Below are positions 61,157-62,875 of a stretch of DNA of 64,000 bases, piece after piece (the stretch's first letter is position 1; every line of letters begins with the position of its first letter). The stretch is from an uncultured archaeon (lineage in GTDB: Archaea; Asgardarchaeota; Lokiarchaeia; Sigyniarchaeales; SOKP01). Below the pieces are notes generated by a model. The model worked only from the letters and a program-made list of their open reading frames with translations, was not told where the DNA came from and searched no databases. The DNA lies in NCBI GenBank assembly GCA_964486045.1, contig CAZALK010000001.1, forward strand, positions 360,242 to 424,241, read 5' to 3'. The position numbers were made by a program, and so were the translations under genes.

Positions 61157-61169
61157 GTAAATGTATTAG

Positions 61170-61243
61170 TGGGCCAGGAGAGACTTGAACTCTCGACCTT
61201 CTCGGTGTAAGCGAGACGTCATACCAGACTAGACCACTGGCCC
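61170..61243 (-). tRNA. tRNA-Val(TAC), intronless
   Basis: GGGCCAG acceptor pairs with CTGGCCC; anticodon arm TCTCG-CTTACAC-CGAGA; T arm GAGAG-TTCAAGT-CTCTC; CCA not encoded. Confidence 0.96.
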
Positions 61244-61397
61244 AATTTTGTTTTTTACTTATAAATAGGATAAATTCTAAGTAAAATTAAAATTTTTGGG
61301 TGGAACATAAATAGATACTAAAATCACCTAAAAACTGTTAAATAAATTCATTAATTTGGGATTTAATTGGTAATATATTATGTTAAATCAAATAAAA

Positions 61398-61431
61398 GTT
61401 CAGGGTGGGATTTTCAAGAAAATGCTAATTG
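61398..61431 (-). repeat. Degenerate copy of the tRNA-Ser 3' end plus T-loop intron (att-like or tRNA fragment)
   Basis: cagggtgggaTTttcaagaaAatgc (61401-61425) vs cagggtgggaCAttcaagaaTatgc (62659-62683): 22/25 identical. Confidence 0.75.
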
Positions 61432-61627
61432 TAGTTTTCATTTTCTTATTTGGGGGCTTATTTCAAATTTGAGTCGACTAATTCAAATCTATGAAAATTA
61501 CCTTCTGATATTGGGAATTAATTTACTAATCAATCCCAGTGCACATTTTTTTAATTCTGGTATTTTAATTTACATACAAATATTATTATAGGTGACGAAA
61601 ACCCAAGCTCAATTCAACTAATGGAGG

Positions 61628-62383
61628 ATGATATTATTGACTACAAAAACTCAATTACAATTAAGAGAGCGCGTGTTGGACATAATGAAGATTAATGATT
61701 CATTTTTAGACGCGTGTTTGCTAATGTTGTTTGAACAACAAACATTTGATGAACGGCAAATAAAAAATAGTGTGCATCGAAACACAATTGGGTTTAACAG
61801 ACCAGACGCCTACCTGCTTTCCGATTATTCTGTTTGGAAGTTAAACTTCCCGGATAGATCAATAAACGGAGAATTAAAAACTACTTTAATTAACAAGCTT
61901 GAAAAGTATACTTTGCAATTATCATCTTACAGAGAAGTTGTAGCCGCATTAGACGGCTTAAAGGATCCAACATCAATTGTCACGCGTGTCAAGAATGAAA
62001 TAGACGTTGATAAATTAGATCCAACCACTTTGCTTAAAGATTATTTAAATTATAAAAAAGTGGAACGAAAAAAAGAATTAAGAGAACGGACTAAAAAGAA
62101 AAATGAAGAAGAACGACACAAAAAGTTAGGGTTAACTCACGACATTATTATGGGGGCCATTGTTGAAATCGAACCAAAAGCTTTAAAGATCAAAACAACC
62201 TTTGAAGATTTCGAGATGGATCTCTGGTTTCCAAAATTTAGCATCATTAAGGGATATAAAGAAGAACTCAATATTTTCCAAGAATTTATGATCAAGAAAA
62301 GAATGTTTTCTTATAAACTCGAAGATGCCCTTGGTAAAAAGATATATCACGATACGCTCCAAACTAATAGATTTAGAAAGTAA
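61628..62383 (+). CDS. Hypothetical, probably mobile-element/phage-derived protein
   Basis: QQTFDE...N.IGFNRPDA..LS...KY..QL N-domain and E.KAL.I......W.PK.S C-domain resemble phage-type domains (from memory); GGAGG SD; CpG-richer than neighbours. Confidence 0.6.
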   Translation: MILLTTKTQLQLRERVLDIMKINDSFLDACLLMLFEQQTFDERQIKNSVHRNTIGFNRPDAYLLSDYSVWKLNFPDRSINGELKTTLINKLEKYTLQLSSYREVVAALDGLKDPTSIVTRVKNEIDVDKLDPTTLLKDYLNYKKVERKKELRERTKKKNEEERHKKLGLTHDIIMGAIVEIEPKALKIKTTFEDFEMDLWFPKFSIIKGYKEELNIFQEFMIKKRMFSYKLEDALGKKIYHDTLQTNRFRK

Positions 62384-62654
62384 ATGGCCTCATCGTCGTC
62401 ATTCGACAAAAAATATTACTCTTGCGAATGATTTTATGGAATTATGAATTGGAATATCGGTTATCTCGTTATAGCGCTAAAAACAGCGTTGAAGAAGATC
62501 ATGACGTGTTACAAGAATTTATCATTTCAACTTCCATGTTAGAAACTAAGAAACAAGATGTGATAAGACTTAAAGATCAAACTCTTCATGCGTATCAACT
62601 TTAGATGATTCTTTAGATTAATATAGAAGATTTGAATATATTGAAATGTATAAG

Positions 62655-62796
62655 CGCCCAGGGTGGGACATTCAAGAATATGCGAAATGCGTTTCTTTTC
62701 GAACCCACGTATCCGTTGGACACTGGATTAGCAATCCAGCGCTCTACCGAGCTAAGCGACTTTCTTTCAGCAATCTAAGGGATTGATGAACTGAGC
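62655..62796 (-). tRNA. tRNA-Ser(GCT) with a 29-nt BHB intron at 59/60 and a 30-nt insertion at 6/7
   Basis: Exons 62796-62791, 62760-62698 and 62668-62655 join into a full cloverleaf: GCTCAGG/CCTGGGC acceptor, CTGGA-TTGCTAA-TCCAG anticodon arm, long variable arm, GTGGG-TTCGAAT-CCCAC, discriminator G. Confidence 0.88.
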
Positions 62797-62875
62797 TTCG
62801 TTTAATTTCCCGAGCATAAAGTTGTAATTAATTATAACGATTTGAAATTTTAATATTTTATCATAAAATCTGGGT

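Follow-up and report, generated by a model that had tools for sequence, protein, structure and literature searches.

A tRNA-Ser(GCU) gene of a Lokiarchaeia-type archaeon with a predicted intron at position 6/7 of the acceptor stem and a copy of the acceptor strand upstream

Layout of the locus and the spliced product

The window is the whole stretch of 64,000 nucleotides analysed here, which belongs to a Lokiarchaeia-type (Promethearchaeota) assembly of 5.18 Mb with 31% GC and 99% completeness, whose nearest relatives are Promethearchaeota/Promethearchaeia (Lokiarchaeia) MAGs. The minus strand of the window carries a tRNA-Ser(GCT) gene with two interruptions between positions 62655 and 62796. 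An earlier note, made from the letters of the DNA, had described this gene, and its coordinates and sequences were re-derived exactly from the minus strand. The three exons are colinear within 142 nt and stand in their normal order, which rules out a split or permuted gene. Read 5' to 3' on the minus strand, the features are as follows.

62823-62862, minus strand: A/T-rich upstream block, probable promoter region (AAAATATTAAAATTT...CGTTATAAT)
62815-62809, minus strand: upstream copy of the 5' acceptor strand (GCTCGGG)
62808-62797, minus strand: spacer or 5' leader of 12 nt (AAATTAAACGAA), complementary to tRNA nt 8-15
62796-62791, minus strand: exon 1, GCTCAG, tRNA nt 1-6; the same in all nine orthologues that carry intron 1
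62790-62761, minus strand: intron 1, 30 nt, at position 6/7 of the acceptor stem; a hairpin followed by a 6-nt 3' tail (AAGA+AA)
62760-62698, minus strand: exon 2, 63 nt, tRNA nt 7-59; D arm, GCT anticodon arm, long variable arm and 5' part of the T arm
62697-62669, minus strand: intron 2, 29 nt, at position 59/60 in the T loop; strict hBHBh' motif
62668-62655, minus strand: exon 3, tRNA nt 60-73 (TCCCACCCTGGGCG); remainder of the T arm, 3' acceptor strand CCTGGGC and discriminator G

Removing both introns in silico produced an 83-nt tRNA-Ser(GCT) that was recognised by ARAGORN. The spliced product has a 7-bp acceptor stem with a single G-U pair (T3-G70), a standard D arm and a long variable arm, with TTGCTAA in the anticodon loop and TTCGAAT in the T loop, so the earlier claim that excision of 62761-62790 would restore a 7-bp stem with one G-U pair was borne out. 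Likewise, the expectation that standard finders would overlook the gene proved right: it was missed by ARAGORN and by Rfam at the gathering threshold, both in the window and in the whole genome, and the neighbouring tRNA-Val was the sole tRNA that these tools returned from the window. ARAGORN made no tRNA call on the unspliced and singly spliced forms, and a genome-wide Infernal search gave only a partial match of 22 bits at the Ser-GCT locus, covering model positions 10-42. At both intron junctions the bases on the two sides differ, which leaves no room for sliding, and the predicted joined sequences were found exactly in orthologues that lack one or both introns. The borders of exon 2 are moreover the exact ends of BLAST matches in many relatives (query 71-133). 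A 14-nt strict-BHB 'intron' across the border between intron 1 and exon 2, after whose removal ARAGORN calls an 84-nt Ser-GCT, was taken as a chance A/T-rich motif and rejected because its exon borders conflict with the intron-free orthologues.

A strict BHB consists of two 3-nt bulges, each cut after its second nucleotide, with a 4-bp helix between them and the flanking helices h and h'. Intron 2 is an ordinary strict BHB intron with the features of the EndA-spliced class: it has an outer helix GGG(T)/...CCC, a central helix TTCG/TGAA and an inner helix AGAA/TTCT, and its bulges are AAA (cut after AA) and TGT (cut after TG). The motif scorer gave it 4/4 pairs in the central helix, an outer helix of at least 4 bp and an inner helix of 4 bp, which agrees with the earlier description of a textbook hBHBh'. 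Homologous introns at position 59/60 are present in many relatives.

The distance between tRNA-Ser and the tRNA-Val(TAC) gene (61169-61243, minus strand) is ~10-25 nt in most relatives, compared with 1.4 kb here (61244-62654). This interval contains a 251-aa ORF (61628-62383) with a weak phrog_21015 match and no Pfam match, and no integrase was found in it. At 61380-61440, ~1.26 kb downstream of the tRNA-Ser 3' end, the final ~14 nt of intron 2 together with exon 3 recur as a degenerate direct copy (...TTCTTGAAAATCCCACCCTGA...), and this distal copy is closer than the working gene to the version found in relatives (AAAATCCC...CTGA). The interval looks like what is left of an element that had inserted itself into the 3' portion of a tRNA gene in which an intron was already present. 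The tRNA-Val(TAC) gene has no intron in the window, and in some relatives (loci L009, L013 and L042) ~27 nt are inserted into its D-loop region (GGTTATGG[ttcaatttt...]ACGTC), a further case within this tRNA cluster of an intron that is present in some genomes and absent from others.

Orthologues, gene uniqueness and splicing enzymes

A search of 135 family genomes identified an orthologous Ser-GCT gene in 84 of them. The 6/7 insertion was present in nine genomes, seven in the genus of the window and two in another genus, which amount to perhaps two or three independent lineages, so that counts over the nine orthologues overstate independence. In all nine, the insertion lies strictly between GCTCAG and GTCGC. 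Both introns occur in the window genome and in L002, L003 and L005, the 6/7 intron by itself in L004, L025, L028, L029 and L030, and the 59/60 intron by itself in L006, L026, L027, L032, L035 and others, while the orthologues with no intron include L007, L008 and L009. The genes of L006, L009, L026, L027 and L038 have an identical acceptor and a precise absence of the insertion, with GCTCAG running directly into GTCGC (GCTCAGGTCGC). The boundaries of the 6/7 intron are fixed by these orthologues, and its excision restores a canonical tRNA.

Identity across the nine intron-bearing genes was 93% in the exons versus 68% in intron 1, and the anticodon stem changes in a compensatory manner between orthologues (CTGGA/TCCAG vs CCGGT/ACCGG); together, exon conservation and compensatory stem changes argue that the Ser-GCT gene is under selection. 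No further copy of either intron or of the leader occurs in the genome, and intron transposition was discarded as an origin. The intron-1 and spacer variant of L005, a member of the window's genus, is nearer to that of L029 and L030 from another genus than to its own genus, which suggests that the tRNA-Ser allele as a whole was either transferred or already polymorphic in the ancestor. Loci L041-L043, again from another genus and with a GCAATCG acceptor, have a different insertion of ~17 nt in the D arm (...GGTAGA[acggaatagcgtgccgaa]AGCGC...); the same tRNA-Ser is interrupted at no fewer than, that is at least, three different positions within one family.

A second Ser-GCT gene, for which the earlier note had suggested looking, was not found anywhere in this 99% complete genome by any of four methods, namely BLAST, a covariance model of the intron-free orthologues, a scan for the anticodon arm, and BHB splicing combined with ARAGORN; the tRNA census is partial, and a heavily disrupted second gene may have escaped it. 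The other eight intron-bearing genomes contain one matching locus each. AGY codons make up 30% of the Ser codons in the long ORFs of the window.

Only 25 loci in the genome reached the Rfam tRNA threshold, and partial matches together with in silico BHB splicing indicated that most tRNA genes are interrupted, with introns of the T loop, D arm or anticodon region. Whole-genome splicing at strict BHB motifs followed by ARAGORN recovered few hidden tRNAs. Semi-relaxed BHB splicing of 42 loci recovered most isoacceptors, plus many spurious 'introns' in intron-free genes, and relaxed BHB scores alone therefore carry little weight. A GC-island screen for hidden RNAs returned 1672 islands and was too unspecific. 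One candidate 'tRNA-Ser gct, 72 nt' at C2:36312 was rejected on account of its class-I size and U73, and was read as a tRNA-Cys(GCA) with two introns. In this 110-nt gene (G000:C2:36312-36421, minus strand), the ARAGORN label varies between Stop, Ser and Cys with the segment that is removed; one of its introns is short and sits in the variable/T region, and the GCA option comes with U73. The genome also has a tRNA-SeC(TCA) gene (G000:C15:137830-137917), and selenocysteine use is therefore probable in this host.

Two EndA paralogues and an RtcB ligase are encoded in the genome. The alpha paralogue (G000:C7, L023 1168-1773) keeps the Tyr-His-Lys triad, and its N-terminal loop aligns with the Crenarchaea-specific loop (CSL) of the A. 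pernix alpha subunit, which was also the top PDB match (3P1Z_B, E = 1e-33). The beta paralogue (G000:C10, L024 1207-1809) has Ser in place of the catalytic His, which fits a structural beta subunit. The host is hence predicted to possess a two-subunit EndA of the broad-specificity type along with RtcB. Asgard archaea have been described to use an (alpha-beta)2 EndA with an L1 loop, and this loop is linked to relaxed-BHB cleavage (PMC5829648).

The splice motif at 6/7 and the upstream acceptor-strand copy

Intron 1 forms the hairpin TTCA/TGAA plus CAATC/GATTG with -6.3 kcal/mol and z = -3.2 versus shuffles, which corroborates the fold given in the earlier note. That note had also proposed an alignment of orthologues in search of a covarying hairpin at 6/7, and compensatory changes were indeed found at three pairs across the nine genomes with the insertion. 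The BHB rule was applied to the 6/7 junction of all nine orthologues in the same register as for intron 2. Here, the 5' bulge consists of A5, G6 and one intron nucleotide, with the cut after G6, and the 3' bulge of two intron nucleotides and G7, with the cut before G7. In seven of the nine orthologues, the window gene included, the inner helix runs from intron nt 2 to a point 6 nt short of the 3' site. The central helix, in which the intron provides the partner of GCTC, has 4/4 pairs in L003 (GGGT) and L028 (GAGT), 3/4 pairs in four orthologues, and 2/4 pairs in the window genome (GCTC vs AAGA), L002 and L005. With two of four central pairs, a strict BHB does not form at 6/7 of the window genome, and the author of the earlier note had been equally unable to build one.

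The outer pairs A(-1)-T8 and G(-2)-C9 were formed in 7/9 orthologues, and the outer helix of the window gene has 1 bp in the canonical register, or 3+3 bp after a shift by one nt. Over the nine-gene alignment, the proposed 6/7 structure was 84% paired, compared with 31-38% when the partners were slid. The RNAfold MFE structures vary among orthologues and did not reproduce a clean BHB. The 6/7 motif, canonical in some relatives, has decayed in the window gene and is weaker there than the 'relaxed' class of the literature; no enzyme is known to cut so degenerate a motif.

The A/T-rich block is kept upstream of Ser-GCT in most family members, with introns or without. Closer to the gene, ATGCTC(A/G)GG occurs 10-12 nt upstream of G1 in all nine genes with the 6/7 intron and in none of the five genes that share the acceptor and lack this intron (9/9 vs 0/5). 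A leader complementary to nt 8-16 is distributed in the same way, present in the nine and absent from the five. Both features are new here, and the earlier note mentions neither of them. The upstream copy reads GCTCAGG in five orthologues and has G5 in the other four, the window genome among them, where the two copies differ (upstream GCUCGGG vs downstream GCUCAGG); the downstream copy has the ancestral A5 in 9/9. Mean pairwise identity among the nine orthologues was 92% for the upstream copy versus 67% for the spacer. Among 29 other tRNA genes of the genome, there was no case in which the first 7 nt recur, even approximately, in the 60 nt upstream.

The helix between leader and exon 2 was 72.8% paired over the nine orthologues, and the whole structure in the same test reached 78.8% versus 26-43% for slid controls. 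RNAfold paired the leader of the window gene, AAATTAAACGAA, with T8-G15, shifted by one nt. When six full pre-tRNAs were folded, every MFE structure (6/6) paired the 3' acceptor strand with the upstream copy and made the spacer, exon 1 and the intron an inserted domain. RNAalifold returned a leader hairpin for the 5' region, in which the upstream GCTC is paired with GAGC at -2..+2, with zero covariation. The upstream copy could instead pair with the D-loop/D-stem (CCTG...GAGC) or with GAGC at -2..+2, and covariation cannot choose among these partners because they are invariant. Whether the upstream copy is transcribed hinges on which A/T box is the TATA; three A/T-rich boxes lie upstream, the assignment from them is ambiguous, and the copy may not be transcribed. 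It is proposed that the upstream copy is either a surrogate partner of the 3' acceptor strand or the outer portion of the leader/D-arm helix.

Taken as a whole, this is probably the single functional tRNA-Ser(GCU) gene of the genome, with an acceptor-stem intron that is likely to be spliced by EndA and RtcB via a degenerate BHB assisted by the leader. The pre-tRNA would adopt an alternative fold that presents the 6/7 splice sites, in which the hairpin of intron 1 itself would be the inner helix, the 5' leader paired with nt 8-16 would be the outer helix, and exon nt 1-4 (GCUC) would lie opposite intron nt 25-28 as the central helix. In the window gene, the 5' bulge would be A5, G6 and U (cut after G6) and the 3' bulge A, A and G7 (cut before G7), and of the central helix only C2-G and U3-A would be left, between G.A on one side and C.A on the other. 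The upstream GCUC(A/G)GG may hold the 3' acceptor strand while the real 5' strand is engaged. An (alpha-beta)2 EndA with its specific loop would cut after G6 and after intron nt 30, and RtcB would join the exons so that GCUCAG is followed by GUCGCUUAG. After ligation, the D arm and the acceptor stem would refold to the cloverleaf and RNase P would then trim the leader; intron 2 would be excised independently of intron 1. Within this scheme, the analysis shows the anatomy of the gene, its conservation, covariation and geometry, the presence of the enzymes and, as far as the partial census reaches, the uniqueness of the gene; I infer cleavage at a central helix of two out of four pairs, as well as the role and the transcription of the upstream copy. 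That the upstream GCUC(A/G)GG acts as a transcribed surrogate acceptor strand, which keeps the body of the molecule tRNA-like until the real strand displaces it and RNase P removes it, is offered as a tentative and rather doubtful extension of the scheme.

The upstream copy (62815-62809) might itself be the true 5' acceptor strand, in which case a 49-nt intron at 6/7 or 7/8, comprising the spacer, the second GCTCAG and the hairpin, would be removed. Its 92% conservation and its potential for 7 pairs with the 3' strand, a pairing seen in the MFE folds of the six pre-tRNAs, are in favour of such an arrangement, but with the upstream copy as exon 1 (U6/G7 or U7/T8) the outer and inner BHB helices form in 0/9 orthologues. 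Moreover, its G5 would make a G.U pair with T68 in four of the nine genes, whereas the downstream copy retains the ancestral A5 throughout, and the canonical register of the hairpin suits the downstream site only. Since flanking helices are missing with the upstream copy and since it has G5 in four genomes, the downstream copy was kept as exon 1, and removal of 49 nt is considered unlikely.

A route that does not involve EndA, in which another nuclease and RNase P remove the insertion, or in which the hairpin stays in place as an extra arm, appears quite improbable. The central helix of 2/4 pairs in the window genome, L002 and L005 would fit with it, as would a stable, covarying hairpin of the kind expected of a structural arm, yet the splice sites stand 1 nt ahead of the hairpin and 6 nt behind it, as EndA geometry predicts, and L003 and L028 have all four central pairs. 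Close relatives do without the insertion, and a hairpin retained at 6/7 would break the coaxial stack of acceptor and T arm that is used by RNase P, the CCA-adding enzyme, SerRS and elongation factor.

A pseudogene, inactivated by the 30-nt insertion while another tRNA reads the Ser AGY codons, would account for the lack of a strict BHB at 6/7 in the window genome and for the silence of the standard finders, but is very unlikely because no other Ser-GCT was found in the genome (and one locus each in the eight other intron-bearing genomes), because the exons are constrained (93% identity, compensatory stem changes) and because AGY supplies 30% of the Ser codons in the window's long ORFs, and the insertion itself is conserved and covarying. 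The earlier note had left a choice between a new intron position spliced via a relaxed motif and an insertion that inactivates the gene; the former gained from its presence in nine genomes, the covarying hairpin, the BHB-like geometry with a complete central helix in two orthologues, the lone gene and the predicted (alpha-beta)2 EndA with a specific loop, and the latter lost ground.

Known tRNA introns and the place of the 6/7 intron

Already known are tRNA introns that are non-canonical or several to a gene, BHB motifs built with the leader, interruption of the acceptor stem at 3/4 (PMC4090602) and Asgard tRNAs rich in introns. In Thermoproteales, the non-canonical BHB tRNA introns include one at 3/4 in the acceptor stem (Sugahara 2008, as cited in PMC4090602), and 3/4 is the extreme known case named in reviews. 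The 6/7 intron resembles those of Thermoproteales in being short, apparently protein-spliced, at a position other than 37/38, here in the acceptor stem, and in a gene with more than one intron, and the likeness would extend to the leader-built motif and to an (alpha-beta)2 EndA with a specific loop. Unlike the 3/4 case, the present intron lies at 6/7 in an Asgard lineage, its central helix has 2/4 pairs, and it comes with a conserved upstream duplicate of the acceptor strand.

In split and permuted tRNA genes (Nanoarchaeum, Caldivirga, Cyanidioschyzon), leader or trailer sequence outside the mature tRNA builds the BHB that is cut by EndA. The predicted motif at 6/7 is similar in that sequence outside the mature tRNA would pair to build it, but the present gene is in one piece with its exons in the usual order, and the leader would give no more than the outer helix and perhaps a surrogate for the acceptor strand.

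Asgard genomes with an (alpha-beta)2 EndA have been described in which one to several introns occur in most tRNA genes, many of them missed by standard annotators (PMC11291895; bioRxiv 10.64898/2026.10.13.758758). The window genome is likewise intron-rich in its tRNA genes and is predicted to have an (alpha-beta)2 EndA. Those studies are centred on Freyr-, Jordi- and Atabeyarchaeia and start from genes found by tRNAscan-SE, and no leader duplication is described in them (PMC11291895; bioRxiv 10.64898/2026.10.13.758758). The 2026 preprint mentions 'a few' Asgard acceptor-stem insertions under 'other', without details (bioRxiv 10.64898/2026.10.13.758758). A partial literature search returned no report of the 6/7 position, of a strongly degenerate motif in an apparently essential gene, or of an acceptor-strand duplicate.

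No introns are harder for BHB splicing than those of the acceptor stem, since motif and stem need the same exon bases. The nine orthologues offer a natural series in which the central helix ranges from 4/4 down to 2/4 pairs, all with the conserved leader device, and how far the substrate range of Asgard EndA reaches, and what the leader contributes, can therefore be tested directly in vitro. If the proposed mechanism is true, Asgard EndA accepts a central helix of two Watson-Crick pairs, and a surrogate strand, if it exists, would be a cis-acting device, not described before, by which introns in the acceptor stem become viable. That an apparently essential tRNA gene is called neither by ARAGORN nor by the Rfam model matters for accounts of Asgard tRNA complements and codon capacity.
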